Source: Nitrospirales bacterium (GTDB lineage: Bacteria; Nitrospirota; Nitrospiria; Nitrospirales; UBA8639). From it: a stretch of DNA of 64,000 bases. A program made the position numbers and the translations under genes. The DNA lies in assembly GCA_963422365.1 (NCBI GenBank), contig OY729426.1, forward strand, positions 576,001 to 640,000, written 5' to 3'. Under the pieces are notes generated by a model. It saw nothing but the letters and a program-made list of their open reading frames with translations. It did not search any database and was not told the origin of the DNA. Positions 7,255 to 55,012 of the stretch are shown in pieces (position 1 is the first letter of the stretch; every line of letters begins with the position of its first letter).

Positions 7255-7364
7255 GTTCGTCCAAATTTCAGATCCATAATCCGGCAAGCATTCCCTCCTT
7301 GAAGCAGTGCCTCCGCCAGTCGACACATGGCGAGCAAAGTCAGCTTGCCATGTGCGAGGCCAGA

Positions 7365-7835: not shown

Positions 7836-8003
7836 AATCGCATGGAAGAAGCGTGTTCAACGGGAGGCAAGGTATTACCTACCAATGTTTTTGCCTTGGC
7901 AGCAACCCTATGACCCTGCATAACACGCATCTTCAAAAATTTTTCCGGTAGAATATGACCAGGCCCTATAAAAGGGAATCCGTGCCCTAAAGGAGATTCT
8001 CCG

Positions 8004-9348
8004 ATGAACCAACTCGCCACACTTCGCATGGCCGATCAAGCCATCATACTCCCCATCGCCACGAGAACCGAAGGTGAACAGGTGCTTGACGTCACAACAC
8101 TGCACGCCCAAACAGGACTCGCCACCTTTGACCCGTGGTACGTGAATACCGCCTCCTGTTCCAGCACCGTCACGTTTCTTGACAGAGACAAGGGATTCTT
8201 CGATATCGCGGCATTCCCATTGAGCAACTGGCCGAACATTCGAATTTTTTGGAGACCGCCTACCTTCTGATTGATGGAAGGCTACCCACCCAATACGAGT
8301 ATCAGATATTGACGAACGCCATCACCCGGCACACGCTGCTGCACGAAGACGTGAAACGTTTTTACGATGGGTTCCCTAAAGATGCGCACCCCATGTCCAT
8401 TCTGTCGGCTGTGACCGGCGCGCTTTCGATGTTTTATCAAGACAGCCACAACCCGACCGATCCTCAACAAGTCGAGTTCTCCACTCACCGTCTTCTTGTC
8501 AAAATCCCAACCATCGCCGCCTATTCCTATAAGAAGTCGATCGGGCAGCCCTTTGTCTATCCCGATAATGCGTTGGACTATTGTTCCAATTTTCTCCGCA
8601 TGATGTTTTCGGTTCCCTCCGAGCCATACACGGTGAATCCCATTGTGGCCAAAGCGTCGGACCTGTTGTTCATCCTCCATGCCGATCATGAGCAAAATTG
8701 CTCAACGTCCACGGTACGTCTCGTCGGATCGTCGCATGCGAATCTCTTTGCTTCCGTGTCTGCCGGCATCTATGCGTCGTGGGGACGACATGGCGGTGCG
8801 AATCAACAAGTGATGGAGATGCTCGAAACCATTCATGCCGACGGAGACAATGTGCGGAAAGATATCGATCTGGCCAAGGATCGGACCCATCCCTTCCGCC
8901 TTGCAGGGTTCGGCCACCGCGTCTACAAACACGATGACCCTCGGGCCAAAATGTTAAAACCGGCCTGCGAGCACATTCTGGCCACCTTCGGCATTCAGGA
9001 TCTGTTGCTCGAAATCGCCAAAATCTCGAAGAGATTGCTCTCAAGGATGACTTTTTCGTCTTAAACAAATTGTATCCGAACGTCGATTTTTACAGCGGGA
9101 TGATGTACAAAGCGATCGGGTTTCCCGTGAATATGTTCACGGTCTTGTTTGCGATTGGCCGATTACCGGGATGGACTGCCCATTGGCAGGAAATGATGCA
9201 GGAACCCTCTGTCAAAATCGGCAGGCCTCGTCAATTGTATACCGGCCCTTCCTTCACCGACTATGTGCCCATGGATCGAAGAAATGACGAAACCGCCCAT
9301 GCCGGGAAGGCTCGCATGAAAGACGAGGCACATCTCCACCCCTTGTAA
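8004..9348 (+). pseudogene. gltA: Citrate synthase, frameshifted
   Basis: Three consecutive ORF pieces with [46 protein letters not shown]; frameshifts near 8190 and 9020. Confidence 0.9.
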
Positions 9349-9499
9349 GAAGCGGTGAGGTGGGTAGAGCCGCGAGCAGAAAGCGCACATCATAGGCCAT
9401 TGAGACGGCATCCCTGTTCGGGGACTTGCCTTATGCCGCCAACAGCAGGCGCCATGAGATGGCGCAGCCACAAAAGAGACGGGGTAGAGGGCACCATCC

Positions 9500-10087
9500 C
9501 TAAAATTCCACCTTAGGCGTGGCTCTGGCTTCTTCTGATATTTCGAAATATTCGGCTTGTCCGACTCCAGCCAGACTTGCATAGAACCTCCCCAGCAATT
9601 TCCGGATAAAGGTATTCAGGATCCGAACACGATCGTTATACCTTTTTCGTTCAACTGCCAATCGATTCTCCGTCCCTTCCAGTTGGTCTTGGAGCTTTAA
9701 AAACGACTGATTGGATTTGAGTTGGGGATAGGCTTCCCGCAAGACCAACAGCCGCGACAGCGCCGACTCGAACCCGCTCGCCGCTCGGGCTTTCTCATTG
9801 ACTGATTGCGCCTGAAAATAGGCTTTGCGTGCTTCTGCGACTCCCAAATAAATCTTTTCTTCCTGGCTCGCCACACCTTTGACGGTATTGACCAAATTGG
9901 GGATTAATTCAAACCGTCGCTGCAACTGATTTTCGACCTGTGCCCATTGGCTTTTCACCGCTTCATCCATCTCAATGGCTTGGTTATATCCGGAATAGAC
10001 ACAGCCACCAAGCATCACGATCAGGATGAGCAACCCGCCGAAGACCATGAATAATATACGTCCAGCACCCATGATTTTTTCCTCCAT
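9500..10087 (-). CDS. lemA: LemA family protein
   Basis: WAQVENQLQRRFELIPNLV, EAYPQLKSNQ, LEGTENRLAVERKRYN. Confidence 0.93.
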   Translation of the reverse strand: MEEKIMGAGRILFMVFGGLLILIVMLGGCVYSGYNQAIEMDEAVKSQWAQVENQLQRRFELIPNLVNTVKGVASQEEKIYLGVAEARKAYFQAQSVNEKARAASGFESALSRLLVLREAYPQLKSNQSFLKLQDQLEGTENRLAVERKRYNDRVRILNTFIRKLLGRFYASLAGVGQAEYFEISEEARATPKVEF

Positions 10088-10174
10088 GAACTAATTTTGT
10101 ACGATGCCGAACCACGCTAGAGGAGTGACCGGCCTATCAGGAGAGAGCCGTGTTCGTTTCATGAACAAGCCTCG

Positions 10175-10999
10175 CTACCAGCCCGCACCGCCCCCGCCCC
10201 CGCCAAAGCCTCCACCCCCACCGAACGATCCGCCAAAACCGCCCCCGAATCCACCGCCAAAACCGCCGCTTGATCCGCCCCAAGCGCTTCTCCCTGTTAG
10301 GCCACCCAAGGCACTGCCGAGCAACATACCTCCGACTAATCCTCCGCCACCCCAAGTGGAACGATACCGGCGCCGGCGGCGCATGCTGGAAAACAACATG
10401 AAAAGAAAAAATAACGGGATGAGCAACGATCCCAGAACTGAGCCACCTCCACCACCTCGGCTCGGCCGATACCGATGTTGGGGAATCCCTGTGAGCTTGA
10501 CCTGTTGGGAATCCGCGACTTGATTGGCCGTCACGACCGCCAATCGGAAGAGACCCTTGGAATAGTGGGACTGTTTAAAAAATCGGGAGGCGACCGCACG
10601 GGAAGCCGAGCCTACCCATGAATCGGGCAGCACGCCCTCCAATCCATACCCCGTATGGATTCGTACCTTTCGTTCTTTGAGGGCCAACGCGATCAAGGCG
10701 CCGTTGTCTTTACCTTTTTGGCCAAGTTTCCATGCTTCGGCATGCCGCTGGACAAAACTAAAAAATGGTTCGCCTTGGGTCGACTGCACAGTCAGCACTT
10801 TCACCTGCGCCGTGGTTTTCCGTTCGAGTTCACGAAGCCAGCCCTCTAACTGCTGCTCGGCACCACGGTCAATGATTCCGGCGCCGTCCACGACATAGGT
10901 ACCGGGGTCCTGAACAGACACCTCGCCCCAACTCAAAGCGGACAAGAGCAGCAGGACAACTATGGCGAACGCGGATTTCTTACCCATGGTCGTTACCAA
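10175..10999 (-). CDS. TPM domain protein with Gly-rich tail
   Basis: WKLGQKGKDNGAL, GYGLEGVLPD, terminal GGGFGGGGGGAGW; adjacent to lemA. Confidence 0.9.
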   Translation of the reverse strand: MVTTMGKKSAFAIVVLLLLSALSWGEVSVQDPGTYVVDGAGIIDRGAEQQLEGWLRELERKTTAQVKVLTVQSTQGEPFFSFVQRHAEAWKLGQKGKDNGALIALALKERKVRIHTGYGLEGVLPDSWVGSASRAVASRFFKQSHYSKGLFRLAVVTANQVADSQQVKLTGIPQHRYRPSRGGGGGSVLGSLLIPLFFLFMLFSSMRRRRRYRSTWGGGGLVGGMLLGSALGGLTGRSAWGGSSGGFGGGFGGGFGGSFGGGGGFGGGGGGAGW

Positions 11000-11718
11000 C
11001 GATCAGCCACGGTTTTTAATCCATCGATTTCATCATAAAGCCGTGTAAAATCGTTCCAGTCATGCTGGTGGGTTTCTTGTAGCGCCCCGCGAATTCCAGG
11101 AAGGGATCGATCTGTTTCTTGTTCAATCCGGCCTACTATTTCAAACGCCGAGAGAGAGTCGTATTGTCCATGAAGCCACAGTAACCCACGAAGGGTGCGG
11201 ATCAACCGCTCGGCAATATCGCCTTCCATGGCCCCAAAGAGTTTTTCACGACCTGCGGCCGCAAGGAGTCCTTGACGCATGCCGATCAAGATGGTTTTCA
11301 ACTCACGCTCACATTGAAGCCGAATATGCTGTTCCTCAAACGCGATATCCGCAAAATAGTCGGTACCGACGAAACACAAGTGGCATTGCTGAATTTCTAA
11401 AAACTCCAAAGGGAAGGTATCCAAGGATCCCGTAATGTAGAGGGGTGTCATGATCAGAGGAGCAGCAATTTTGGCTTTTCCAAGTTTGACCCCGTCTTGA
11501 GCCAGCTTCCGGAGCATTGCCAAATCAATCGTTTCCAAAACAAGGACGCTGCGTGCGGTATGCCACGCCGGATCAAAGCCGGACGTAGCAATAGCACCCA
11601 CACCAATAAGAGCCAAACAATTTGCCCCGTCGAGCGTTTGAATTCGATCAATAAACCTCTTCATCGGCTCCTGCATTCCACTGACGACTCGTTCGAGATT
11701 CATCACGGATTGGGTCAT
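10993..11718 (-). CDS. Conserved hypothetical protein of LemA/TPM operons (nucleotidyltransferase-like)
   Basis: SLDTFPLEFLEI, LRLQCERELK-type motifs; likely start ATG 11718. Confidence 0.7.
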   Translation of the reverse strand: MTQSVMNLERVVSGMQEPMKRFIDRIQTLDGANCLALIGVGAIATSGFDPAWHTARSVLVLETIDLAMLRKLAQDGVKLGKAKIAAPLIMTPLYITGSLDTFPLEFLEIQQCHLCFVGTDYFADIAFEEQHIRLQCERELKTILIGMRQGLLAAAGREKLFGAMEGDIAERLIRTLRGLLWLHGQYDSLSAFEIVGRIEQETDRSLPGIRGALQETHQHDWNDFTRLYDEIDGLKTVADRW

Positions 11719-11982
11719 AGGAGTGACTCCTGGATCAAAGTTTCCTTTGGGGAACGGGCAAGGAAAAGAGAGCAAGTTCGAATATGTTTGTCCCACTACG
11801 TTACGTCGTATCAGGCTAACGCACAAGGCTAAACCTTGCAAGAGAGAAAACCGAGGAGGTGGGCGACGTGGTGGTCGTCACATGAGCGAGCCGCCTCATC
11901 CTACACTAGGCCACTTGTCAATGGCGCGTGGTTGTCAACGAGGTTTTGTCAGACGTGATCGTACCACGCCTTCTTCAGGAAA

Positions 11983-12005
11983 GGCCGCATAAGATGCAGC
12001 CCTAC
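11983..12005. repeat. GTAG-type REP-like palindrome (GGCCGCATAAGATGCAGCCCTAC)
   Basis: Near-identical copies at 49594-49618 and 55231-55250. Confidence 0.7.
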
Positions 12006-39320: not shown

Positions 39321-39950
39321 GTGTCCATCATCCTGGCTTCCACCTCTCCGCGCCGCCGCGAATTACTGGCCTTGCTCGGCATTGCGTTTGACATCATGCC
39401 TCCTACGGCCGAGGAAGTCCCATCCCCCGATCTTTCGCCTCCCGACCAGGCAAAACAATTTGCGCTGGATAAGGCGCTCTCCATTGCACACCACTATCCG
39501 GATGATCTGGTGTTAGGCAGCGACACGGTGATTGACATCGACGGCACACTGTTGGGTAAACCTCAAGATCTCAACCAAGCGGAAACCATGTTGCGGCAGA
39601 TCCGAGGGCGTGCACATCAGGTGCATACAGGCCTCGCGCTGATTCACCACGTGACAATGCAATTGGTGGCGTTGGTCGAAACCGCCCATGTCTGGATGAC
39701 ACCGTGTCACGACGAGGAACTCCGCGGCTACCTCAATACAGAAGAAAGTCTGGGAAAGGCCGGAGCCTATTCCATTCAAGGCGAAGGCGCGCAGCTTATT
39801 GAAAAGATCGAAGGAGATTATCCAACCATTGTCGGGCTACCCTTGTGGCAAACCGCTAAACTGCTGGAGCAACAGGGAGTCGTGCTCCCGAAGTCTGTTG
39901 AAGAGATCTACCGACTGAAGCCGTACGCGAATTGGAAAGAATTTGCGTAA
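39321..39950 (+). CDS. maf: Maf family nucleoside triphosphate pyrophosphatase
   Basis: ILASTSPRRRELL, GSDT, LGKP, KAGAY.IQG, VGLP. Confidence 0.95.
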   Translation: MSIILASTSPRRRELLALLGIAFDIMPPTAEEVPSPDLSPPDQAKQFALDKALSIAHHYPDDLVLGSDTVIDIDGTLLGKPQDLNQAETMLRQIRGRAHQVHTGLALIHHVTMQLVALVETAHVWMTPCHDEELRGYLNTEESLGKAGAYSIQGEGAQLIEKIEGDYPTIVGLPLWQTAKLLEQQGVVLPKSVEEIYRLKPYANWKEFA

Positions 39951-40097
39951 AGTATTTGTGAACATCGTGATTGATCGGAGTCTCTCTGCCCGCCGTTTAT
40001 TTGAGAAGTGGTCCCAGTCTGATTCCTTGGGCCCATTTTTAACTGTACAAACCATACAAAATATTGTTGCTTGACCAGTGAATTGAAAAGCGCGACG

Positions 40098-40113
40098 ATC
40101 TTACCAGTAAGAT
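40098..40113. promoter_or_regulatory. Palindromic operator (ATCTTAC-CA-GTAAGAT) upstream of AbrB-PIN TA
   Basis: Perfect inverted repeat ~20 bp before the antitoxin start; autoregulatory role inferred. Confidence 0.6.
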
Positions 40114-40134
40114 TTTGACGAGGAGGATACCCAC

Positions 40135-40386
40135 ATGGCAGAACTGACAACAACGAAGATGTCCTCGAAGGGACAGGTTGTCATTCCTGAAGAAATTCGA
40201 AAATGCCTGGGTCTTGAGGCCGGAACTCAATTTGTGGCGGCGGCGGATAAGGATACGGTCATCATGAAAGCCATCTCGCCACCCTCAATGGACGAATTCG
40301 ACACTCTGAAAGCAGCCGCGAGAAAGGCAGGATTGAAGCAGGCCGACATCCAGTCCATGACCTCGGAAGTACGTTCAGGGAAATGA
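40135..40386 (+). CDS. AbrB/MazE/SpoVT family antitoxin
   Basis: TTKMSSKGQVVIPEEIR..LGL..G; GGAGG RBS. Confidence 0.9.
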   Translation: MAELTTTKMSSKGQVVIPEEIRKCLGLEAGTQFVAAADKDTVIMKAISPPSMDEFDTLKAAARKAGLKQADIQSMTSEVRSGK

Positions 40387-40793
40387 AAATCGTCGTAGAT
40401 ACCAACGTTCTCATATCGGGTATCTTCTTCGACGGCCCGCCAGCACGAATCCTGAAAGCACGGTATAACGGCAAACTGCAATTTGTCGTATCACACGAGA
40501 TTCCAGAGGAATACTTTCAAGTTTGTGAACGACTTTCCTTTCGATATCCAGATATCGATATGACTCAAATTCTTATTCTGATGGTCCCAAACTGTCACCG
40601 TGTGGACACTCCGTCTTTGCCATTACCCCAGCCCTTTTCAAGCGATGCGGATGACGATACGTTCATTGCCTGCGCTTGAGCGAGCGACTCTAAAATTATC
40701 ATCAGCGGCGACAGTAATTTGCTTACAGTGTCTGGCTACGAAAATGTTCAGATCGTAACGCCTCGAGATTTCGTTGATAGATACATCGATTGA
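40383..40793 (+). pseudogene. PIN-domain (VapC-like) toxin with premature stop
   Basis: VVDTNVLISG..DADDDTFIACA*; reading continues past TGA 40677 as ASDSKIIISGDSNLL..IVTPRDF. Confidence 0.85.
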
Positions 40794-40818
40794 AACACTG
40801 CATTTAGCATCGAATGCA

Positions 40819-41573
40819 TTAGAGCTTCATCGTGAAATCCTTTAATGTGTCGAACTCCTTGAGGACCTTCCAAAAAAAATATTCATCCGATCCTTGACCA
40901 CGAACGTTTCGGTACAGTTCCTCTTCATCAAAGACATAATCTTGAGTCACTCGTGTAACCAGTCCCACACATTCAGGAATTCCTTTTCTTTCAGAATACC
41001 CAGGTACGTTTCATGCTCAATATTTACACCCTAAGCCTTAACATATTCGGTCTTTTCTTCGCCTATTTCTACATGAAGCTGATGGCCTCCATGGTTCCAC
41101 TGAATTGGAAGAGATCCATCTTCATCGCTGGAAACAAACGGGGTCTTCCAAGCCGTCCACTGTTTACGATAGAATAGAAAAAATACTCCAGGGTATTAGG
41201 GGCTTGACTCAAAATAAAAGGGCCTGCTAGCTTTTTTTGACCCTTTCCCATCCCAATTATCTTCACGCTCAGTTATTTTTTGAAGTTTTTCTTTCAATGC
41301 TTCCGCAAGGACGGGTAATTGTCTCGTTGACACCTTCTAGAAAACTGTTCCCGCTGTGAAAGCTTTCATCCTTCAGCCCTTGTTAAGTCTTCTTCATTGA
41401 GGATGACCCTCTCATGCGATCATGGAAACCCATCGTCCACGTCCTCAACGACACTGACCCCTCAGTTCTTTCCTGAGCTTGGTCCCCTAGCTTCTCTAGG
41501 ATGTCGGTGATGTTCCACTGGAAGATGTTTCGAATGTTTCTTTGGTTGAATGTTCTGCTTGTAACGATGGCAT
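40819..41573 (-). pseudogene. Degraded two-gene module (NWDG-motif protein plus coupled ELYRNV-motif protein)
   Basis: Minus strand: EDNWDGKGSK..PFVSSDEDGSLPIQWNHGGHQLHVEI..WDWLHE*, overlapping GTG start of TQDYVFDEEELYRNV; stops and frameshifts. Confidence 0.5.
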
Positions 41574-41597
41574 CTTCGACCTTTCGTATGTTTCAGT

Positions 41598-41899
41598 GGT
41601 ATAAAAAGACCAAGGACGTGCTGGTTGCCGAAGACCCGAGATCAGAAGAGCTACTGAAACCGATTTTGCGTGGACGGGACATTAAACGCTATCGGGCGGA
41701 ATGGGCGGGGCTGTGGGTGATTGATTCACACAATGGCTATGGCAATGTGCCGCCGGTCAATGTCGATGACTATATCGCCATCAAACAGCATCTGGATCAA
41801 TTCTACCCGCATTTGAAGAAGCGGCAGGATAAGGGAGTCACGCCGTACAACCTGCGTCATTGCGCTTATGACCAGGAGTTTCTACGCGATAAGCTCGTC
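41598..41899 (+). pseudogene. Internal fragment of Type IIG restriction-modification enzyme (region before TaqI_C-like specificity domain)
   Basis: EDPRSEELLKPILRGRDIKRY..W.GLW.I, KRQDKGVTPYNLR.CAY..EF. Confidence 0.85.
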
Positions 41900-41905
41900 T
41901 TATCG
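41887..41905. other. Putative tyrosine-recombinase crossover site CGATAA-GCTCGTC-TTATCG
   Basis: 6 bp inverted arms with a 7 bp asymmetric spacer at the RM/recombinase junction. Confidence 0.6.
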
Positions 41906-42019
41906 ACGATAAAGGCGGCGTTGTAGCCGGTTTTTATTCCGTAGTGGCAATATCTCGCAGTGTTCACAAGTGGCAGGGCTTACATTGCTTTCCTTTCAAT
42001 AACCTTAGGGAGAGCAGCT

Positions 42020-42993
42020 ATGACCCCATCCACAACCCCGGAATTGGCAGACAGTCCCCCCAGCGCGGCAGCGTTCACGGGCCGCTTGCAGGCCCGGCCA
42101 TGGCCGCCAACACTCGCAGGGCCTACACCGAAGGCTGGGCCATCTTCACAGACTGGTGCGGGCCCACGCCATGGCCCCCTCGCCGCCACGCCCGGCCACC
42201 TCGTTGATTTTTTCGTGGCGACCGCCTCCCGCCGCAGAGCGGGTACGGATACGCTGTTGGCGTTCGGCACCCTCGTTCTGATCCGCTGTGCCATCCGCCG
42301 TCGCTATGCAGACGCCAACCTGACCTCGCCCACACATCACCCCGACGTCACAGCCATCTTCAAGGGGCTCGCCCGCCTGCGGGGCGCCGCGTCAAGGCGA
42401 TTTGCGAGGACCAGTTGGCTGCGATGTTGGCGAAGTGCCCGGCCACGCCCATCGGCGCACGGGACGCGGCCGTGCTGGCGCTCGGCTTTGCCGCCGCCTT
42501 GTGCCGCTCGGAATTATGCGGGCTATCGATAGGGGATATTGAGCGGATTCCGACAGACGGGGGGGCCACCGGCATCATATTGCATATCCATCGCTCGAAG
42601 ACAGACCAGGCGGGGAAAGGCCAGCAGGTGGTCGTGCCCGCCGGGAAACGGATTCGCCCAGTCGCCGTCTTGGACCGCTGGGTCCGCGCCCATGGCCCTC
42701 ACGCCGGCCCCCTCTTTCAATCGTTGCGACGGGGCGGACGACTCACAGGCCACCCCCTCCACCACTCCGATATTCCGCGCTTGGTGAAACGGTATGCCGC
42801 GGCCATTGGGCTGGACCCTGCCGAGTTCTCCGCCCACTCCCTGCGGGCAGGCTTCGTCACCAGTGCGGCGGTCCATCACGCGCGGATGGACAAGATCATG
42901 GCCGTGACCCGCCACACCAACCCAGCTACAGTCATGAAATACATCCGCGATGCGGACGTGTTTACGGACCATGCAGGACAGGGGTTTTTGTGA
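42020..42993 (+). pseudogene. Cre-like tyrosine recombinase, frameshifted in N-terminal half
   Basis: NTRRAY..W..F..WC, RD.A.L.LGF..ALCRSEL, RSKTDQ.G.G, HSLRAGFVT, RH....VMKYIR; about 3 frameshifts between 42090 and 42400. Confidence 0.88.
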
Positions 42994-43039
42994 GAGTCGA
43001 TGGGCGGGGCGCTGTTCATTTTGGCACTGGACAGGATTG

Positions 43040-43138
43040 GACTACACCACCGGGCAGGAAGCCGAAATCGACCGGCTGGTGTATCAGCTATACAGGCTGA
43101 CGGAGGAAGAGATTAAACTTGTGGAGCAGATAAGATAG
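43040..43138 (+). repeat. Type IIG RM C-terminal tail, copy 1
   Basis: EAEIDRLVYQLYRLTEEEIKLVE. Confidence 0.85.
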
Positions 43139-43185
43139 GATAAGCCAAGAATATCAGCAAATTAAAGATGGAAATTATCCTTTTA

Positions 43186-43587
43186 CTACTTGTCCTCGCG
43201 GTTACCCGGGGTTTTGTATAAGTCATCAAAATGCCATAACTTTTCTATTAAATACTTAAGCAAAACCATCAAGTCACTACTAATAATACCTAGTGTAAAA
43301 CCCAGTCCGGCGCGTATCTGAAAACTTCCTGATGCTATTAGCCAAATTGCTGCTCCAATCAGGGCTATAATTCCAACGCAAAGCACAGACGATACAATTC
43401 TAGAAAACCAAAGTTGCCGAGCGAGAGACTTGAACCGGTAAGCCTCTATGGTATGGCTATGTTCCTGCTGTCGGCTTTCTCATCCTTGCTCATGCTCTTG
43501 CTTTGCAGTCCCCCTTGGAGCTTCCTGTTTCTGCTCGTCCAGTCGCAGGTCTTTCATGGGGACTCTGTGGTCCACTTCGTTGTTCAT
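43186..43587 (-). pseudogene. Two-TM membrane protein, putative Panacea-paired toxin (internal stop)
   Basis: ATG 43587 in frame with the hydrophobic ORF 43186-43386; TGA at 43480; directly downstream of Panacea gene. Confidence 0.55.
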
Positions 43588-43599
43588 GAGCTGTTTGAA

Positions 43600-44032
43600 C
43601 TGTTTCTTTCTTCCTGGCTTCATGTGTTGTTTGCATTTCGCCGGGCTGATGACCAAGGTGTGCCTGCTTCATGTGTCAAATTTGAAAGGTATAAACCGGA
43701 GTAAGGGGAATAGAGGTTCCAGCCCTGACCCAATAGCCAGTGGAAATCGGTATCTTGCTCGGGGACTACCTCATCATCTGCGGTTCCCTCTCCCAATTTT
43801 CTTTACTGATAGGCACGCTCCCAAATATTTTGTCAGCATGATCAATTTCTGGAAATACCGGACCATACTTCCACGCCTCCGGTTCCTTGTTGATTGCTGG
43901 TCTCTCAACATATGCCAAGTGCCATCCGTGAACGAGATAGACCAGCTTTTGTAACTTAAGCGGGCTAATCAGTATATTTTTCTCAAACGATAGCTGCAAG
44001 ACACTCTTGGCAACTTGCCGTGCAGGATACAT
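43600..44032 (-). pseudogene. Panacea/SocA (DUF4065) antitoxin, frameshifted
   Basis: LKLQKLVY..HGWHLA, EAWKYGPV, and in another frame LSNLTHEAGTPW. Confidence 0.85.
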
Positions 44033-44175
44033 TCTTGGTTGCCTCCCCAACCCTCGTTTGTGCTTTGGATGAAATCTTCTCTTACTTTAGTACAAACAGG
44101 TTATCTTGTCTCTCAACTCTACGATTTGACAGATGCACGTGGTGAGATAGGGTGAAACCAGGCGAGCATATACCG

Positions 44176-44308
44176 CAGTGCGGCGACTTATCATGCACGG
44201 ATGGACAAGATCATGACGGTAACCCGTCACACCAGCACCAATACGGTAATGAAATACATCCGCGATGCGGATGTTTTTACCGACCACGCAGGGCAGGGTT
44301 TTTTGTAA
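44176..44308 (+). repeat. Second copy of the tyrosine recombinase 3' end
   Basis: AATYHARMDKIMTVTRHTSTNTVMKYIRDADVFTDHAGQGFL*, homologous to 42861-42993. Confidence 0.92.
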
Positions 44309-44340
44309 CGCAGAGACCGGTCTTTCATATGTTTGTTACC

Positions 44341-44416
44341 CTGCAAACCGAAATCGACACGCCGGGTTTATCGGCTTTACGGACTGACAGACGCGGAAGT
44401 TGTAGCAGTGGAGGGA
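44341..44416 (+). repeat. Type IIG RM C-terminal tail, copy 2
   Basis: QTEID(fs)VYRLYGLTDAEVVAVEG. Confidence 0.75.
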
Positions 44417-44616
44417 TGCTGTAGTAGAAAGTGAATAAGTGCTTTTATTGAACAAAACGTTTACAGACTAAAACGATATGGCCGGGAGTTTTGACATTTT
44501 TTAGAAACGCATGATTGATGAGACTGTTGAATGATGAAGCAATGGACTGCGCTTGCATCAGTGATATATTTAGCCTGATTTTGAATGCCAAAATATCCAC
44601 ATAGAGGGGAAATGTT

Positions 44617-47085
44617 ATGGCAAATAAGAAATCCACATTTTTCGCAAAGCTATTCTATAGCTACTGCCACAAAGACGCTCAGTATAGAGATGCTATGGAA
44701 AACTCGCTTTCTTTTCTGAAGAGAGAAGGACTGCTCCAAGATTGGTCGGATAGAAGTATCCTGCCGGGACAGCAAATTTCACAAACAGTCAAGAAAGCAA
44801 TGAATGCGGCGGACATTATGGTGTTTCTGTTTAGTCCGGATTTTATTGCCTCCGATGCCTGCATGAAAGAATGGAAAGATGCAAAACGACTTGCTACTGA
44901 AGGAAAGCCGACCGTTCGTATTCCAATTATTCTCAAAGCATCTCCCTGGCAAGAACTGCTTGCCAATGATGACGTAAAAGCATTGCCGAATGACGGAAAG
45001 GCCGTCAATACGTTTCAAAGGCAAGATGAAGCATGGCAACAGGTATACGAAGGTATTAAATCTGTTATCAAACAATTAAGAAATAACTTCACCCCAAAGC
45101 AGGAGTTTCTTGATGAAATGAACAAGACCGATTTTCTATCGCAGCATTCTATTAAACTTCAAGATATTTTTATTTTCCTGCGTCTGTCTTGCTACGGGTC
45201 ACAAGAAAAAAATGGAGTGGTGCAGGAGGAAATCATCACATGCCAAGAACAACTTCTGGAAAAGAAACGTGTTCTTGTTCACGGAGAAGATATGAGTGGA
45301 AAAACAGCTCTTGGGCAGCATCTGTTTCTCTCTTTGGCTGAAGAACCCTCAACCCCGGTTTTGCATATTGACCTGAAAGACATTTCTGAAAAGCGTAAAG
45401 AGAAAGTGTTTATTGACACATATCGCCAGCAATTTAATGGCGATTATTCATTATGGAAGCGGCAAAATAATAAAACTCTCATCTTGGATAACCTGAACCG
45501 AACATCCAACATAGGATTCATCGGCTTCGCCAAAACCTTTTTTGACAGAATAATTATCATCCTGTCTTCCGATGCTTTCAGTTCATTTTTTAAAGATGAG
45601 ACACGATTGGCGGATTTTCACAAAATGAAAATTGAACCCCTGACACACGGACAACAGGAAAAGCTGATCAGAAAGCGATTGGCGTTATCGAACAGGGAAG
45701 AACCTGTTACAGATGGCTTTGTGGATCAAATTGAAAACCGCGTTAATTCCGTAATTATCTCCAACAAAATTGTGCCGAGGTATCCGTTTTTTGTGTTGTC
45801 CATTCTGCAAACTTACGAGGCATTCATGCCCGACAATCTATCCATAACTTCGTATGGACACTGCTATTATGTTTTGATTCTTGCCCATCTTATTAAGTCA
45901 GGAATCTCCCATAGTGACAGCGATATTAATACTTGTCTTAATTTCGCTGAACATCTGGCATCCGGGATTTATCATGATACTGACTTAAACTACGATGAAT
46001 TTATTAGTAAATATAAAGAAAGGTTTCATATCCAGGATTCAATCTTGAACAGGTTGAAAGACCCCGATCATGGCATTCTTACTGACTGCGGCCATTTTAA
46101 AACACCGTATATGCACTATTTTTTCCTGGGTCGATTTTTGTCCAGGAAAAGTGACACTTCGAAAAAAATAATTCGGGAGATGTGTGAAAACAGCCATGTA
46201 AACGCAAATTATCTGACGCTTTTATTCACGATTCATCACACGAATGACAATGAAATAGTGGACGATATTTTACTTAAAACCATGTGTACATTGGATAGCG
46301 TTCGACCGGCGGAACTGAATCGCGAAGAAACGAAAAGATTTGAGGAACTTATCGCTGCTCTCCGCGAAAATATATTATCCAGTAATAGTGTGGAGTCGGA
46401 AAGGGAGCAAGAAAGAGGTGCCCGAGACGTTGACGAGCAACAACTTGAAACCAGGGAGAATATGAAAGAAACAACCGATGATTACCCCGTCAACGACTGC
46501 TATCGCATTTTGAAGAACAATGCAATTATGGGACAGATTCTTCGGAATAAACACGGCAACATGGAAAAAACAAAGGTTGAAGAGATTATCGAGGTCATTG
46601 CGGCCGGCGGCCTGCGTCTTGTGAATCTTGTCCTGAAAGATGAGGAAGAGATAGCTGATTTGGCACGTTTAATTCATGAACAGCACCCTGATGACGACAT
46701 TCAGAAAATCAGAAAATTCGTTCAGTTTGTATCCTTCATTTGGACGATGACTAACATTGAAAAAATTGTCGGGTCTGTAAACGTTCCGGAAATCAGAGAA
46801 TCGGTCAATAATGTTGTATCTGGCAAGTCAACGCCTGCATATGACCTGATTGATTATTTCAGCCAGCTGGATAACTCAAATGAACTTACAAATGGAATAA
46901 AGGAGAAACTTGGTAGCTTGTTAAAGAAACATGATGACCCCTTTTTGCGAAGGGTGTTATCCATCAGAACGCAATTCTACATGAAGACACATCGCAGCAA
47001 AGCGCCTATTCAACAATCAATTTGTTCTTTGTTGGGCATTTCATATTCTCAGCAATACCGTCTTGGAAGAAATACGTCTTCGTGA
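44617..47085 (+). CDS. TIR domain + STAND/NACHT-like NTPase protein (putative antiphage NLR-like)
   Basis: N-terminal TIR_2 (FYSYCHKD, WSDR.I.PG, FIASDACMKE), Walker A GEDMSGKT, Walker B LILDN; intact 822 aa, AT-rich. Confidence 0.85.
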   Translation: MANKKSTFFAKLFYSYCHKDAQYRDAMENSLSFLKREGLLQDWSDRSILPGQQISQTVKKAMNAADIMVFLFSPDFIASDACMKEWKDAKRLATEGKPTVRIPIILKASPWQELLANDDVKALPNDGKAVNTFQRQDEAWQQVYEGIKSVIKQLRNNFTPKQEFLDEMNKTDFLSQHSIKLQDIFIFLRLSCYGSQEKNGVVQEEIITCQEQLLEKKRVLVHGEDMSGKTALGQHLFLSLAEEPSTPVLHIDLKDISEKRKEKVFIDTYRQQFNGDYSLWKRQNNKTLILDNLNRTSNIGFIGFAKTFFDRIIIILSSDAFSSFFKDETRLADFHKMKIEPLTHGQQEKLIRKRLALSNREEPVTDGFVDQIENRVNSVIISNKIVPRYPFFVLSILQTYEAFMPDNLSITSYGHCYYVLILAHLIKSGISHSDSDINTCLNFAEHLASGIYHDTDLNYDEFISKYKERFHIQDSILNRLKDPDHGILTDCGHFKTPYMHYFFLGRFLSRKSDTSKKIIREMCENSHVNANYLTLLFTIHHTNDNEIVDDILLKTMCTLDSVRPAELNREETKRFEELIAALRENILSSNSVESEREQERGARDVDEQQLETRENMKETTDDYPVNDCYRILKNNAIMGQILRNKHGNMEKTKVEEIIEVIAAGGLRLVNLVLKDEEEIADLARLIHEQHPDDDIQKIRKFVQFVSFIWTMTNIEKIVGSVNVPEIRESVNNVVSGKSTPAYDLIDYFSQLDNSNELTNGIKEKLGSLLKKHDDPFLRRVLSIRTQFYMKTHRSKAPIQQSICSLLGISYSQQYRLGRNTSS

Positions 47086-47160
47086 TTCTATCTGAGTTTG
47101 TATGCTCAATAGTCCAAAATGATTGGGATTCGTCACATCCCCTTCGATTCGGGCATGCTG

Positions 47161-47284
47161 GTTTTAGCTAAAACCGCCGACTTCCCCGCAGACACCCGCG
47201 ATCAGGAAGCTGACGATCGACCTCCTCGTCTATCAACTCTACGACCTGACTCCCGAAGGAATCTGAGCGGTGGAAGAGCGATAG
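47161..47284 (+). repeat. Type IIG RM C-terminal tail, copy 3
   Basis: AKTADFPADTRDQEA(fs)IDLLVYQLYDLTPEGI*AVEER*. Confidence 0.8.
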
Positions 47285-47373
47285 AACTGATAGAAGGGAG
47301 AATGGTTTGCTAGAGTTTTTGTTGAGAAACCTGCTATAGACTCTGTTGATGGCGTAAACGAAAGGATTCTTAG

Positions 47374-47896
47374 ATGCTGACAAATGACGAAGCGGAGCAT
47401 TTGATCACCCTGCCAAAGAAGCTGGTAGAAGGGGACAATGCCGTTGACTACAACGACTTTTCGTTGGAGCAACGGAAAGGCAAGATATACCTTGTATGCC
47501 GAACAGGAACCCGATTACTCCTTTCTCCCTGATATTCGACGGAGCAGTAAACGTGCGCTGAAAATCACGCTGCACTTTCAGGAAGACGACTCAAAAACGG
47601 GGCTGTTGCGGATCGACTACCATGAACAACACCGGAATCCCCTTGAGATAAAAAACAGCTCGCCCGATCGTTTCAAACCGTATGCCGGGAAGTGGTTTGA
47701 TTATCGCGAGCACCATCTCCATTATTACGTTGAGGGCTATACGCCCTTGGCGTGGGCCATTCCTTTGGTCAATGATGACTTTCCCCTGAAAACCATACGT
47801 GCTGTGAGTGACATTTTTTCTGTCATACAGGCATTTTCCAGGAGAATAAATCTGAAGACCGAATTCAGGGAGTATCAACATGAACTGGCTTTCTGA
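47374..47896 (+). pseudogene. DUF6978-like protein, frameshifted near N-terminus
   Basis: MLTNDEAEHLITLPK in one frame, then LLRIDY...H.NP, HLHYYVEGY..LAWAIPL in another; upstream of DUF1828/1829 gene. Confidence 0.6.
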
Positions 47897-48667
47897 ACAC
47901 GTTGATCACTATGACGATTGGCTCAAGGCCAAAACCCATATTCCGCCCTATGATGCAAGCGATTGGGGGCTCATTTCCACTCCCTTTCTAGGACGGTTTA
48001 ATGACACGCTGGAAATCTACGCGAAAAAGCACGGCGATGAGATCACACTCTCTGACGACGGCAAGACCCTCCACGACTTAGAACTCATGGGAGTTTTTTC
48101 TCTCGCTCCTCGTCTCGGAAGGAGATGCTGGAACGTATCCTCACCAATCATGTTGTGAGAGAAGAGGAAGGCGAGCTTGTGACACGAGCCAGGGAATCCG
48201 ATTTTCCCCAAGGGAAGCATAATTTGCTCCAGGCCATGTTAGAAATTAGCGAGTTTCATGTCCTTGCCAAGCATACCATTGCCAATGTTTTCAAAGAGGA
48301 CGTGAGAGCGTATCTTGACGAGCAAGAGATCGTCTATACGCCTCAATTCATTTGCAAAGGGGCCGTCGGGATTGAATTTACTTTTGACTTCCACGTGGCC
48401 TATCGGAAAAAGGAGATTGTGCTGAAGTAATTCAGCGGCATCAACAAGACTTCACTGTCAAGTTTTCTGTTTATGTGGAGGGATATTTGTGAATCCAGAA
48501 AACATTTGACAGGTAAAGAAGTATCGGGACTTGCCCTTATTAATGACGAAGACAAGAGTATTAATCCTGAGTATCTGGATGCCTTGAAGGCAGGCAGAGC
48601 GGATTACGTAAGATGGCAGGACAGATACGTGCCTGAAAATACAGCAAAATTCAAAGAAGCCGCATAA
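47880..48667 (+). pseudogene. DUF1828/DUF1829 protein, broken
   Basis: ISTPFL..FND.LEIY, LSDDG.TL, KHNLLQAM, F.EDV..YL, G..G..F.FDF, INDE; one frameshift plus TAA at 48428. Confidence 0.75.
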
Positions 48668-48870
48668 AAAACGCTTTGACGCAGCATTCTTTTTCCAGCA
48701 ATGGAGCGGCGTTCAGAAGCACCTCAACGGAAGGACCCTCGACCATCAACCCTACGATGACATGCCGGATCTTCAATTGTTATAGAAAGCCATGCGGATG
48801 GGTTGAGAGCCCTGATGATTGTTCAAATGCCCTTCGATCTGTCGAGATGGATGTCAGCCAAGGGCAGACA

Positions 48871-48931
48871 CCGGCGAGCCTATGCACTCTACAGCCTGAC
48901 GGACGAGGAAATCGCAACGGTAGAGGCGCGG
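48871..48931 (+). repeat. Type IIG RM C-terminal tail, copy 4
   Basis: RRAYALYSLTDEEIATVEAR. Confidence 0.72.
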
Positions 48932-48976
48932 GAGTGGTCACTTGGGCAAGAACGATTCACCGAATATGAGTTAGCC

Positions 48977-49255
48977 ATGATTCAATCATTTGCGGATAAG
49001 GACACGGAAGAACTTTTCGAGTTGGAACGCAACCACCGGTTTGCCGCTCTATCGCGAGTTGCGCTGCGAAAATTGATCCAGATGAATCAGGCCAGCGCCC
49101 TCAGTGACCTTGCCGTACCGCCAGTTAACCGTCTTGAAGCTCTTAGAGGTCGGCTTTCGGGCTTTCATCCCATCCGCATCAATGACCAATGGCGCCTTGT
49201 CTTCAGGTGGACGGATGCCGGACCTGAACAGGTTGCAATAGTCAATTATCATTGA
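48977..49255 (+). CDS. higB: HigB (RelE/ParE family) toxin
   Basis: MIQSFADKDTEELF, PP.NRLEALRG, IRINDQWRLVFRW. Confidence 0.9.
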   Translation: MIQSFADKDTEELFELERNHRFAALSRVALRKLIQMNQASALSDLAVPPVNRLEALRGRLSGFHPIRINDQWRLVFRWTDAGPEQVAIVNYH

Positions 49256-49280
49256 AAATGAACCCATGACGTTATAGGAT

Positions 49281-49586
49281 ATGAATATGAACGAGCCAAT
49301 CACACCCGGTGAGATTTTACTTGAGGAGTACCTCAAGCCCATGGGGATTTCGCAACATGCCGTGGCGCGCGCCATCGGAGTTGCCCTGCGAGCGATCAAC
49401 GAAATCGTGCATGGTCGGCGGTCGATTGCACCGGCCACGTGGATTCGCTTTGGCGCCTTCTTCGGTCAGTCAGACCAATTCTGGCACGGCATCCAGGTCG
49501 AGTGCGACTTTCGCAAGCTGGCCGGAGACAAGCACCGGCTTACCGACGGCATTCAACTAGCTGCGACGCTGGGGCAGGCGTCCTGA
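49281..49586 (+). CDS. higA: HigA antitoxin (XRE HTH)
   Basis: [36 protein letters not shown]. Confidence 0.9.
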
Positions 49587-49593
49587 GCATTCG

Positions 49594-49659
49594 AGGCCGC
49601 ATAAGAGGCGGCCCCTACACAGGCACTGGATTCCTGATGACACATACACAGGAATGACA
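49594..49659. repeat. Mosaic of two REP-like palindromes
   Basis: GGCCGCATAAGAGGCGGCCCCTAC followed by CTGGATTCCTG..CAGGAATGAC. Confidence 0.65.
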
Positions 49660-49867
49660 GAAGGGGAAAAGGGAGGGGAACCGGCGACACCAGAGCCCCC
49701 TGTTAGACGCAGGCACCTCTTCAACGGTACACCTTGTCTCGGCGAGCGACCCTCACCACTAGGACACGCAACACACCACCCTCGTGGTGGCAGATCATGC
49801 GGCAATTTCCAACGCGATAACGGCACAGCCCACCCAGTGGGCTGGTCAGTGCCGTGGCCCAGGTTCC

Positions 49868-49975
49868 GCGGGTCATCCAGGCCGTGCTCGATCATCTCAC
49901 GCAGGTAAAACGCCTTCGTACGCCCGGTCTGCGACGCCAGACAATCAAGCCGTTACTCGGTTTCGGGAATATCAC
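49868..49975 (-). pseudogene. RHH/RelB-like antitoxin fragment
   Basis: Minus strand RLDCLASQTGRTKAFYLREMIEHGLDD. Confidence 0.6.
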
Positions 49976-50127
49976 AAGTGCGAACTCGGCTGATACTCCC
50001 ATACGACGCCTCGACGATGCCGCCCTACAAATGCAATGGCATATGATGTGGCCGCGCCAAAAGAGAGAAGAAAGCGAGAGAAGATCCCGCAGATACAAAG
50101 ACGAATGAGACCTGTTCAACAAGAGGG

Positions 50128-50733
50128 TTACAAATACCGATGAGCGACGGCTTGACCCTGCTCATCCAACTCATACAACAACGGGGCACCCGTGGGAATA
50201 TTCAGTTCGAGCACGTCTTCTCGGGAGAGTCGGCCAAGGTGCATGACGAGGGCGCGCAAACTGTTCCCATGGGCCACCACTAACAGGGTCTCGCCTTTCT
50301 CCAGTCGCGGCCGGATCCGTTCTTGGTAATAGGGAACCACCCGTTCGGCGGTATCGTGTAAACTTTCTCCCCCAGGCGGACGCACGGCATAACTTCTCCG
50401 CCACAATTTCACCTGGTCCTCTCCATATTTTTCAATGGTTTCTGCTTTATTGAGCCCTTGTAATTCTCCATACTTGCGTTCATTCAAAGCCAGCGTTTTT
50501 TCAACCTGGAGTTGAGGTTGGCCAATGACCTCCAACACAATCTCCAGGGTTCTGATCGCCCGCGTCAATACTGAGGTAAACGCATGATCAAACCGAAAGT
50601 CCTCAACTTTCTTTCCTGCCTCTCGGGCTTCCTGCTCCCCTTTGGGGCTTAGGGGGACGTCCACCCATCCGGTAAATCGATTTTCAAGATTCCATTGTGA
50701 TTCACCATGGCGAATCAAGACAACCTGTTTCAT
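50128..50733 (-). CDS. gpmA: 2,3-bisphosphoglycerate-dependent phosphoglycerate mutase
   Basis: [37 protein letters not shown]. Confidence 0.96.
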
Positions 50734-52835: not shown

Positions 52836-54026
52836 ATGCTGAATAACCAGGAACTGGAGGATATACTCAAAAGCGGTGAAAGCGACTGCGTGGAATTTAC
52901 AGAATCTACCAGAGACCTGGATAAAATCCGGACAGCCATCTGCGCTTTTGCCAACGATCTCCCCAACCATAAGAAGCCAGGGTTTGCCTTCATCGGAATC
53001 AAGGATGACGGAAGTTGTGCCGATTTGACGATTGATGATGATCGGTTACAGACACTTGGTGGATTGCGAAGCGACGGCAAGATTCTTCCTTTTCCAACCA
53101 TGGAGGTTGTCAAACGAACCCTGAATGGTTGCGAAGTTGCCGTGATACAGGTGGAGCCTTCGGATAATCCACCGGTAAACGTCAATGGCCGGTGTTGGAT
53201 TCGGGTTGGGCCGCGACGCAGCCAAGCCACCGCCGAAGATGAACGACGCCTGACGGAGAAAAGGCGCTGGGGGAATCTGCCCTATGACATGCAAAAGGTG
53301 AGCAACGCGTCTATAGAAAATGACCTGGATATGCGGAAGTTCCGGAGTGAATACCTGCCCTTCGCCGTATCACCGGAAGTGCTGGAAGAGAATGACCGCA
53401 ACCCTGGAGAACAATTGCGGGCTCTACGCCTGACGGCGCAAGACGGGACACCGACCGTGACAGCTATTCTCATGTTGGGTAAAGACCCGCGCTATTGGTT
53501 TCCCGGCGCATACATCCAGTTTGTTCGCTATGAGGGCCGCGAGGTCACGGATGCCATTCTCGACCAAGCTGAGCTATCTGGCCCGCTACCTGACCAATTG
53601 CGCGAAATGGACCGCCTGCTAAAACGAAACATCTCTACCGCCCTGGACACCCACGGGGAAAAACATATCGAAGAGCCGGACTACCCGTTTCAGGCACTGC
53701 GCGAACTCGCCCGCAACGCGGTGATTCACAGGAACTACGAAAATTCCAATACTCCCGTACGACTCACGTGGTTTGCCGATAACGTGGAGATCAGCAACCC
53801 CGGCTCGGTGTATGGTTCAGTAACGCGCGAGAATTTCGGACAACGCGACGCCACGGCCTACCGCAATCCTACCGTTGCGGAAGCCATGAAAAATATGGGG
53901 TTTATGCAGCAGTTCGGCATCGGTATCGCTACGGCAAGGAAAGCACTGGAAGAAAACGGCAATCCGCCGCCTCAATTCACCATAGAAGAAACCTTTGTTT
54001 TCGTTACAGTCAAGAAACGACAATGA
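52836..54026 (+). CDS. Schlafen/AlbA_2 domain + HATPase_c_4 (RecG-C-like) protein
   Basis: ESDCVEF.E, ICAFAND, IGIKDDG, YP..ALREL..NAVIHR.Y, ISNPG, YRNP.VA. Confidence 0.85.
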   Translation: MLNNQELEDILKSGESDCVEFTESTRDLDKIRTAICAFANDLPNHKKPGFAFIGIKDDGSCADLTIDDDRLQTLGGLRSDGKILPFPTMEVVKRTLNGCEVAVIQVEPSDNPPVNVNGRCWIRVGPRRSQATAEDERRLTEKRRWGNLPYDMQKVSNASIENDLDMRKFRSEYLPFAVSPEVLEENDRNPGEQLRALRLTAQDGTPTVTAILMLGKDPRYWFPGAYIQFVRYEGREVTDAILDQAELSGPLPDQLREMDRLLKRNISTALDTHGEKHIEEPDYPFQALRELARNAVIHRNYENSNTPVRLTWFADNVEISNPGSVYGSVTRENFGQRDATAYRNPTVAEAMKNMGFMQQFGIGIATARKALEENGNPPPQFTIEETFVFVTVKKRQ

Positions 54027-55012
54027 AAACCATCGCGTTTTTCAACAACAAAGGCGGAGTGGGAAAAACCTCGCTTGTGTATCACCTCGCCTGGATGTTC
54101 GGAGAAACCGGGTACCGTATCATTGCCGTTGATCTGGACCCTCAGGCTAACCTGAGCGGAATGTTTCTTGATGAAACCAGACTGGAAGACCTTTGGCGAG
54201 ATGGAAACCCAAAAAAAACCATTAATGGAGATATTGCACCCCTGTTTGAAGGAGTGGGAGATATTTCAACAGAGCCTCGTATTGAGAAAGTCGGAGAGCG
54301 AATCGGTCTGTTAGTAGGAGATCTTGACCTTTCCAAATGCGAAGGCGATCTGTCGGAACAATGGCCGAAATGTCTGGATCGGGACAAACGGGCATTTCGC
54401 GTCATAACGGCTTTCGCGCGACTGATTGCCAGCGCCGGTGAAAAATTCCAGGCAGATTTGGCGCTGGTGGACATCGGTCCTAATCTCGGCGCCATTAACA
54501 GAGCCGCGCTGATAGCCAGCGAACACGTGGTCATACCGCTTGCGCCTGACCTGTTTTCATTACAGGGCTTGAGGAACGTGGGGCCGACTCTAAGAGATTG
54601 GGAGAAGGCATGGAAAAAGCGTGTTAAGGATAAACCGGAAGATTTGGCTATTGACCTCCCTACCGGCGATATGAAACCGCTCGGGTATATCGTCATGCGA
54701 CACTCCGCCAGATTGGACCGTCCGGTCAGATCATTCCAGAGATGGATTGAGAAGATACCCATGGCGTACCGGCAAGCGATTTTGGAGACAAAGGACCCTG
54801 GACCGACAGTTGATACTGACGAACACCTTCTGGCGCATCTGAAAGATTATCGATCTCTTATGCCGATGGCGCAGCAGGCCAACAAGCCCATGTTCATGTT
54901 GAAACCCGCCGATGGCGTTATCGGCTCACATCAACATGCCGTCGTGAGCTGCCACAAAGATTTCCGTAATCTCTCGGAAAAAATTATTGGCAAGCTGAAC
55001 CAGGAAACCTAG
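54023..55012 (+). CDS. ParA family ATPase (orphan)
   Basis: FNNKGGVGKT, DLDPQANL, DIGPNLGAINR, PDLFSLQG; ATGA overlap with upstream gene. Confidence 0.88.
   Translation: MKTIAFFNNKGGVGKTSLVYHLAWMFGETGYRIIAVDLDPQANLSGMFLDETRLEDLWRDGNPKKTINGDIAPLFEGVGDISTEPRIEKVGERIGLLVGDLDLSKCEGDLSEQWPKCLDRDKRAFRVITAFARLIASAGEKFQADLALVDIGPNLGAINRAALIASEHVVIPLAPDLFSLQGLRNVGPTLRDWEKAWKKRVKDKPEDLAIDLPTGDMKPLGYIVMRHSARLDRPVRSFQRWIEKIPMAYRQAILETKDPGPTVDTDEHLLAHLKDYRSLMPMAQQANKPMFMLKPADGVIGSHQHAVVSCHKDFRNLSEKIIGKLNQET

Follow-up and report, generated by a model that had tools for sequence, protein, structure and literature searches.

The 19-bp palindrome CGATAA-N7-TTATCG that ends a Type IIG restriction-modification (RM) fragment in the window (the whole stretch of 64,000 nucleotides analysed here) is a by-product composite: its two arms belong to different sites on opposite strands, joined one base off register, and the resulting scar has no function of its own. 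It is the dead scar of a kind of switch already published, as judged from the available part of PMC9881135. We put at about 0.7 the probability that a forward gene fragment and an inverted spare copy meet in this junction through what was likely misdirected recombination between two sites of a dead specificity-inversion switch. The features concerned are collected in Table 1.

Table 1. Features of the window and of the intact paralogous locus (L001)
Feature	Position	Strand	Remarks
Truncated, decayed genus-resident DNA, gene of unknown function	40875..41603	-	Abuts RM fragment
Second hybrid junction	41599..41615	+	GTATA of resident gene joined to site-B spacer AAAAGAC
Forward fragment of Cj0031-like Type IIG gene	41604..41898	+	From site-B spacer to site D
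Degenerate site C, GCGTC-ATTGCGCT-TATGA	41854..41871	+	TA of left arm lost
Composite palindrome CGATAA-GCTCGTC-TTATCG	41887-41905		Hybrid junction, not one native site
Left arm CGATA and 8-bp spacer AGCTCGTC of candidate site D	41887..41899	+	R-D-K-L-V codons of forward fragment
Left arm and first spacer base of site B, inverted silent cassette	41900..41912	-	F-I-V-D-K codons
Remaining silent cassette: first recognition module Y-G-I-K-T-G-Y-N-A-A and site A	41913..41960	-	
Cre-like tyrosine recombinase pseudogene	42020..42993	+	Alignment to intact paralogue; Pfam Phage_integrase
Orphan Type IIG C-terminal tail EAEIDRLVYQLYRLTEEEIKLVEQIR-stop	43058..43138	+	
L001, intact switch locus	L001 6636-11994 = G000:C1:1754636-1759994		
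L001, RM gene	6636-10187		1183 aa, Type IIG-like
L001, inverted spare cassette	10953-10189		
L001, recombinase	11020-11994		Intact, 324 aa

The palindrome lies at 41887-41905, and the RM homology ends at RDKLV, both as the sequence-only reading had described them. A further CGATAA, which that reading had seen overlapping the right arm, is indeed present at 41907-41912, but it adjoins the arm without overlap. The arms can be extended to 7 bp around 5 bp (CGATAAG/CTTATCG, as read from the sequence). The palindrome alone means little, since the window has 18 such inverted repeats, perfect over 6 bp and spaced by 7 bp. CGATAA-N4..11-TTATCG occurs a single time in the 2.50-Mb genome, where about 0.11 occurrences are expected per spacer length, and a search allowing two mismatches gave 3 matches against 1.88 expected. 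Being unique in the genome, the palindrome is without a partner: no site with a matching spacer was found in the genome or in 110 related loci, and the full palindrome was missing from all 1.33 Mb of these loci. Its TA-to-TA spacing is 9, against 8 and sometimes 7 in the sites of the recombinase family, and its 5-bp arms score 10.3 on the family matrix at spacing 9 and -8.5 at spacing 8. Closest to it comes site D of the intact paralogue L001, which has 7 of the 8 spacer bases in common. Misassembly does not account for the junction: the public run X4 has a contig that spans 41692-41944 with 0 differences, and the second junction (41601-41604) is crossed by contigs of X4 and X5, one of which may be the source sample. 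Runs X6 and X7 cover the locus in scattered pieces only.

The right arm had been assigned to the upstream region of the recombinase. It is instead the reverse complement of RM coding sequence (...Y-G-I-K-T-G-Y-N-A-A-F-I-V-D-K), and the left arm of site B at 41900..41912 is the source of both the right arm and the extra CGATAA. Positions 41900-41922 are 100% identical to L001 9447-9469 and 10896-10918, and all 27 switch loci described below conserve site B. Moreover, in an intact related contig the reverse complement of 41944-41900 runs directly into 41605-41898, and there, as in the protein P0001 (1156 aa, Eco57I and TaqI_C), the F-I-V-D-K peptide continues straight to K-T-K-x-x-L-V-A-E-D-P; the right arm and the extra CGATAA are therefore RM codons read backwards. 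With arms from opposite strands, a TA-to-TA spacing of 9 and no copy in the 110 loci, the palindrome does not qualify as one native site. Runs X1, X4 and X5 contain a 721-bp contig with an intact related cassette that was not found in the assembly of this genome (G000); it is 86% identical to 41605-41898 and identical over 41900-41944, and its depth is close to the genome depth of G000 in these three runs.

Little of the switch remains in the window. The forward fragment holds the middle recognition module only; it is 89% identical to P0001 over 94% of the 104-aa query and homologous to L001 residues 945-1052. A further cut on the 5' side, at 41604, leaves an RM remnant of only about 300 bp. 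At the position of the palindrome's left arm, both copies of L001 read CGATA-AGCTCGTT. The family consensus for site C, degenerate here, is GATA/CGTA-8-TACCA. About 60 bp of the spare copy are left, and the spacer of its site A appears about 4 bases short from the translation and a comparison with relatives by eye. Three frameshifting deletions (about 1, 2 and 10 bases long) disrupt the recombinase pseudogene, and the invariant Arg of its L-R-R-S-E motif is changed to Cys; an X4 contig matches 41916-42955 with 0 differences. With the recombinase and both cassettes broken, no switching is possible in the window. The orphan tail behind the recombinase is 98.6% identical to L001 15500-15570 and has a tail profile score of 29.9.

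On the other side, the DNA at 40875..41603 is 76-79% identical to that following maf in three genomes (G001, G027 and G032). Homology to their resident gene stops at 41600-41604, a natural look-alike of a crossover site, which reads GTATA-GCAGTCTA-TATCA in G027 and scores 8.9 there (background fraction 8.5e-5), 3.3 in G001 and 2.4 in G032. The continuation of the gene, present in all three, was not found in G000. A search of 60 relatives for the recombinase gave, outside G000, weak matches only (E 2e-12 or worse), which leaves the window without an orthologous intact locus among them, and a DNA search of 37 same-genus genomes returned no close recombinase.

Window 43058-49586 is an array of defence-type cargo in which each block stands behind an orphan Type IIG C-terminal tail (at 43058, about 44100, 44345, 47205 and 48870); it includes a Panacea antitoxin, a second recombinase fragment (44159-44308), DUF6978 with a split DUF1828, HigBA, and a TIR-STAND protein (44617-47085) similar to NCBIfam DS8_antiphage below the cut-off. 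The tails may be relics of repeated acquisition at the ends of RM genes. An AbrB/MazE-type antitoxin gene and a PIN-domain toxin gene with a stop lie at 40135-40795, with a homologue after maf in G002. The AlbA_2/HATPase and ParA-like genes at 52836-55012 form the same pair as that before the L001 RM gene; no RM gene follows them here. In 7 same-genus genomes a zinc-ribbon/Mrp block precedes a block ending in an MTELAQQ gene, and in the fetched region of 4 of the 7 both lie between maf and gpmA. In G000 the two blocks are found 1.13 Mb away around L001 in swapped order (the comparison spans window 39950-50128 and G000:C1:1745735-1765572), an arrangement consistent with circle excision and re-insertion. 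The excision point may be marked by the tails at window 43055 and L001 15500, which are almost identical; no repeat was found in G000 at the new flanks of the relocated blocks.

L001 is an intact counterpart in the same genome. Downstream of genes for a PLD-SNF2 helicase, AlbA_2 and a ParA-like protein, an expressed Type IIG-like adenine methyltransferase gene and a promoterless spare of its recognition domain lie tail-to-tail, followed by the Cre-like recombinase. The RM protein has Eco57I and TaqI_C domains and is matched by PADLOC REase_MTase_IIG (E 8e-159). The two cassettes form a perfect 381-bp inverted repeat that runs from D-I-A-I-Y to R-D-K-L-V and ends one base past the D spacer; since they are identical over these 381 bp, only the last module can differ between them (W-G-N-L against Y-P-N-M). 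We found no opposite-strand joint, and thus no sign of inversion, in short-read contigs of 4 runs at L001, a test that is uninformative because the 381-bp repeat itself breaks contigs. An exact 25-bp direct repeat (L001 177-201 and 15171-15195) bounds about 15 kb holding the intact switch, and L001 15486-15685 is an inverted copy of a tail-to-tail junction.

To place these two loci within their family, we surveyed 80 recombinase loci, namely L001 and the best 79 of at least 590 matched GTDB relatives. Some cassette DNA lies beside the recombinase in 39 of the 80, and 27 carry both copies in the L001 layout, whereas 41 are without a cassette of the L001 RM type. The set of 27 leaves out L087 (duplicated spare and recombinase), L112 (cut by the locus end) and L067 (split by an insertion sequence). 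At L087 5152-9068 the spare and recombinase occur twice in inverted orientation, 99% identical, and the fetched region contains no full-length gene. The idea that recombination here would switch Type IIG specificity agrees well with the layout of L001 and of the 27 loci with an expressed and a silent copy. By contrast, no element inserted into an RM gene at RDKLV, which had been offered as the other possibility, appeared in the loci examined: the DNA past the junction is the spare cassette, and among the 80 loci (the best 79 of at least 590, plus L001) there was no attL/attR-bounded insert at the RDKLV codon with the RM gene resuming behind it. A metagenome scan with a single recombinase yielded 34 loci, all distant (25-50% in the best segments), and was set aside.

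Alignment of the two copies in the 27 switch loci delimits three candidate crossover blocks, A (W-D-I-x-I/Y), B (I-D-N-x-T-K) and C (D-T or R-N, C-A/Y-H), of the form RTA-8-TAY with a spacer matched within each locus. The 7-nt cores are identical between the two copies in 25 (A), 23 (B) and 24 (C) of the 27 loci, while core identity between loci is 0.05, 0.06 and 0.20, respectively. At site A the identity is confined to the core: the left flank is identical in 0/27, the core in 25/27 and the right flank in 5/27. Synonymous codons are also fixed at the sites, in switch loci compared with 29 stand-alone homologues, of which about 5 of 21 rows at site C are mis-anchored (ACT 21/25 vs 2/24; ATT 25/27 vs 5/14; GAT 13/13 vs 2/9). 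These locus counts overstate independence, because 14 of the 27 loci bear Dehalococcoidia titles; the 13 others have matching cores in 13 (A), 9 (B) and 12 (C) cases. Position 1 of the spacer is variable, being identical in only 8/27 loci at A and 1/27 at C, whereas positions 2-7 match in 26/27 and 24/27. Cre-type enzymes cleave one base into an 8-bp spacer, and a free position 1 followed by matched positions 2-7 fits cleavage of this type. The best PDB matches of the recombinase family by sequence are Cre (profile E 8e-15). The spacing is 7 bp at site B, and at site A in many spares.

The same motif occurs in another setting. In 5 related loci that amount to about one independent case, RTA-ACTCTGAT-TACCA stands in non-coding DNA where the inverted repeats of paired outer-membrane genes begin, again next to a recombinase of this family. 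In these loci (L061, L063, L080, L104 and L115) two divergent, near-identical outer-membrane-like genes without a Pfam match lie upstream of the recombinase, and a central region of 220-350 bp carries the motif at its ends; they are likely invertible promoter switches under the same family. In five others (L064, L082, L084, L091 and L107) the recombinase lies by large RTX-repeat proteins, some near long inverted repeats, and these neighbours are possible surface-protein switches. Two further candidates were dropped: TTATCG-T-CGATAA at F-I-V-D as a site of its own, which has a 1-bp spacer and the matched core beside it, and the tail motif TA-7-TA in V-Y-x-L-Y. A crossover at the latter finds no support, as extra tails downstream of the recombinase were seen in just 3/37 RM-linked loci against 0/40 others and the expressed and silent tails of L001 differ at the motif.

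General conservation of the half-site CGATAA at the RDK codons of homologues is not supported. It is found there in just 5 of 54 copies and is absent from 24 of the 27 switch loci, and our first reading was that it is pure coincidence. We revised this on the matched D cores and on breaks in two other genomes. A GATA arm together with a matched D core is present, with the arm in both copies, at 3 of the 27 loci (L001, L070 and L105), and the D core matches in 5 of the 27, with or without the arm. Where the protein continues V-Y-P, a perfect CGATA-8-TATCC results, as in the L001 spare, L070 and L105. At L105 the C cores disagree and the D cores match. Of 41 stand-alone genes examined, 38 could be anchored, and a single one of these has the GATA arm at D. 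The spare of G427 breaks off where the D spacer ends and is fused there to a helicase gene, at a junction for which microhomology could not be established. G765 shows a reciprocal exchange between the expressed gene and a cyclophilin gene across a shared 10-mer that covers the D spacer; the spare cassette there has the same D spacer, and the module types present lack site C. Together with the window, breakpoints at D are known from 3 genomes. The exchange lies at L225 5888 and L227 about 6960, and a third cassette fragment of G765, in L226, starts at site B. Matched D spacers without the arm are seen in G633, as gene conversion past site C would give. The perfect sites, the L105 cores, the rarity of the arm in stand-alone genes and the breaks in G427 and G765 suggest that D probably does serve as a crossover site in a minority of lineages, so that the left half-site would have this role in a subset, with matched spacers in 3/27 loci. 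In most loci the third site is C; a minority probably have D, at RDK(I/L)V, in its place.

The recognition domain had also been proposed to begin at RDKLV. In the L001 protein TaqI_C extends over residues 963-1122, and RDKLV, at about 1048-1052, falls inside the domain, some 85 residues past its Pfam start and about seven codons after site C, where it precedes only the last of three variable modules. It is the three candidate sites that cut the recognition domain into these modules in the 27 switch loci. Types of module 1 and of module 2 are found in all four pairings among the expressed genes (9, 8, 5 and 4, with 1 untyped), and this reshuffling across species is indirect evidence on the coexistence of inversion variants. 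The recognition domain is homologous, by a weak alignment (E 2.6e-4), to that of CamA (PDB 7LNI), whose base contacts are taken from the available part of PMC8187626. In this weak alignment module 1 corresponds to Gln346/Ile349, module 2 to Arg425/Gln438/Trp439 and module 3 to Tyr455/Lys456/Ser472/Ala473, so that each module would bear counterparts of CamA base-contacting residues. Three modules would give up to eight alleles.

By its layout, the intact L001 system belongs to the programmed inversions in Type II RM genes homologous to Campylobacter jejuni Cj0031 described by Milman, Yelin and Kishony in 2023 (PMC9881135). As far as the available part of that article goes, its loci and L001 share a full-length gene, a 5'-truncated inverted copy, intragenic inverted repeats and a nearby recombinase, as well as an upstream PLD-SNF2 helicase gene, which some of its loci have (a PLD and SNF helicase gene in Bacteroides ovatus CP083813.1). 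L001 has the TaqI_C methyltransferase gene, the inverted spare and the intact recombinase of such systems, and an inverted 5'-truncated spare with intragenic repeats is found at L001 and 26 other loci. In contrast to the loci of that article, the copy in the window is destroyed, with a pseudogene where L001 has an intact adjacent recombinase. Inversion variants were seen there in long reads; in the available part, the target motifs of the recombinase are named as future work and no map of modules to DNA contacts is given. This was the only directly relevant source in a literature search for descriptions of crossover sites that had most subscription journals outside its coverage. According to the available part of PMC10250229, Cre-type sites have an 8-bp spacer, a GATA-like motif beside it and palindromic arms of 13-15 bp. 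The family described here shares with Cre/loxP the 8-bp spacer and its adjoining GATA-like motif; however, its arms have about 4-5 conserved bases and are asymmetric, some spacings are 7 bp, and several sites are nested in coding DNA (compared with the same part of PMC10250229). The palindrome, with 9 from TA to TA, is not a pair of inverted arms around an 8-bp spacer. As with the Type I hsdS invertons, e.g. pneumococcal SpnIII with PsrA (available parts of PMC7672463 and PMC7096588), inversion by a tyrosine recombinase is expected to supply an expressed RM gene with silent recognition domains, whereas here the enzyme is single-chain and Type IIG-like, the three modules lie in one domain and the recombinase is Cre-like. 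CamA of Clostridioides difficile is by description an orphan methyltransferase (available part of PMC8187626), related to L001 through the weakly aligned recognition domain (E 2.6e-4).

The two junctions are read directly from the window; the order of events and the agent are what we infer. The recombinase would invert DNA between paired short sites in coding sequence, each an arm ending in RTA, an 8-bp spacer and an arm starting in TAY. At the right junction the left arm and full spacer of D are joined to the arm and one spacer base of B in the inverted copy, and at the left junction the B spacer is joined to the look-alike in the resident gene. The catalytic part is gone, as are the last module and the tails, and both site A and the recombinase are broken as well. 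This could have come about by two deletions of an expressed-plus-spare locus, or by a flip of the B-D segment within one cassette followed by a deletion, and both routes fit the data. In a small breakpoint census of 6 genomes, 4 of them with matches, read by eye, nine cassette ends could be counted, the three of the window among them; 7 lie at B, C or D, and those of L076 and L119 lie elsewhere. The reciprocal exchange in G765 was counted once, and L067, L212 (a tandem duplication of site B), contig edges, insertion sequences and plain frameshifts were left out of the count.

The scar exceeds a clean product by one base, and its two joined spacers lack homology. Cre-type enzymes normally need homologous spacers. 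Slippage at short homologies is thus a real rival, the more so as the data do not separate the routes. It would have ordinary deletions, by slippage or inverted-repeat collapse, produce the junctions, with CGATAA at RDK a codon coincidence and the recombinase uninvolved. Long inverted repeats are prone to deletion, the left junction shares 3-4 bases, ATA(A), and the right one could have formed through GTC, or through the direct repeat TTATCG in the inverted copy; the decayed genes that fill the island, the lack of CGATAA at RDK in 24 of 27 loci and the one-base shift in register also speak for it. We nevertheless consider this unlikely, as all three cassette ends in the window fall within one base of an arm/spacer edge and independent breaks occur at D in G427 and G765, the latter reciprocal, to which the G765 module types without site C and the matched D cores of L105, beside disagreeing C cores, can be added.

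RecA-type recombination or gene conversion could also reshuffle the copies, with the motifs serving as binding sites or reflecting protein constraints and the recombinase only mobilising the island. The 381 bp of perfect identity in L001 do exceed the need of one site, half of the recombinase loci among the best 79 of at least 590 plus L001 have no RM cassette, and some programmed inversions persist without a neighbouring recombinase (available part of PMC9881135). However, the site A copies share an isolated 7-nt core, too short for homologous recombination, and the same motif marks the starts of inverted repeats outside RM genes, which makes this explanation improbable. Even less credit can be given to the view of the 19-bp palindrome as a native, usable site at a domain boundary or as the attachment site of an RM-targeting element. 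Its two 5-bp arms fit the family matrix at spacing 9 (10.3), and its left arm and 7 of 8 spacer bases are those of site D in L001, where the recombinase is intact. Against this stand its absence from 110 related loci, its uniqueness in the genome with no partner, a right arm made of inverted cassette coding sequence, the score of -8.5 at 8-bp spacing, the Pfam domain start about 85 residues earlier, and the lack of any inserted element bounded by such sites in the 80 loci (best 79 of at least 590, plus L001). Misdirected recombination between two sites of a dead switch remains our preferred explanation of the scar.

The analysis adds a testable definition of the crossover site, a point named as open by Milman et al. 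in the available part of PMC9881135, and three swappable modules mapped to known base contacts, which predict the motif positions changed by each inversion. The intact L001 locus is a complete enzyme-and-substrate set in one genome. More tentatively, there may be a Cre-type family in sponge-associated bacteria that uses very short RTA-8-TAY sites in codons to shuffle three base-reading modules of a methyltransferase, has shifted its third site to RDK(I/L)V in some lineages, in others flips a promoter between paired outer-membrane genes, and recombines off target with look-alikes, with destruction of its own switch and rearrangement of the genome as the result; within that reading, off-target recombination with chromosomal look-alikes would be due to the shortness of the sites. 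If it is true, the feature in the window is a fossil of off-target recombinase activity, the family offers a Cre-type enzyme with unusually small arms, and phase variation of defence genes would be linked to genome rearrangement in symbionts.
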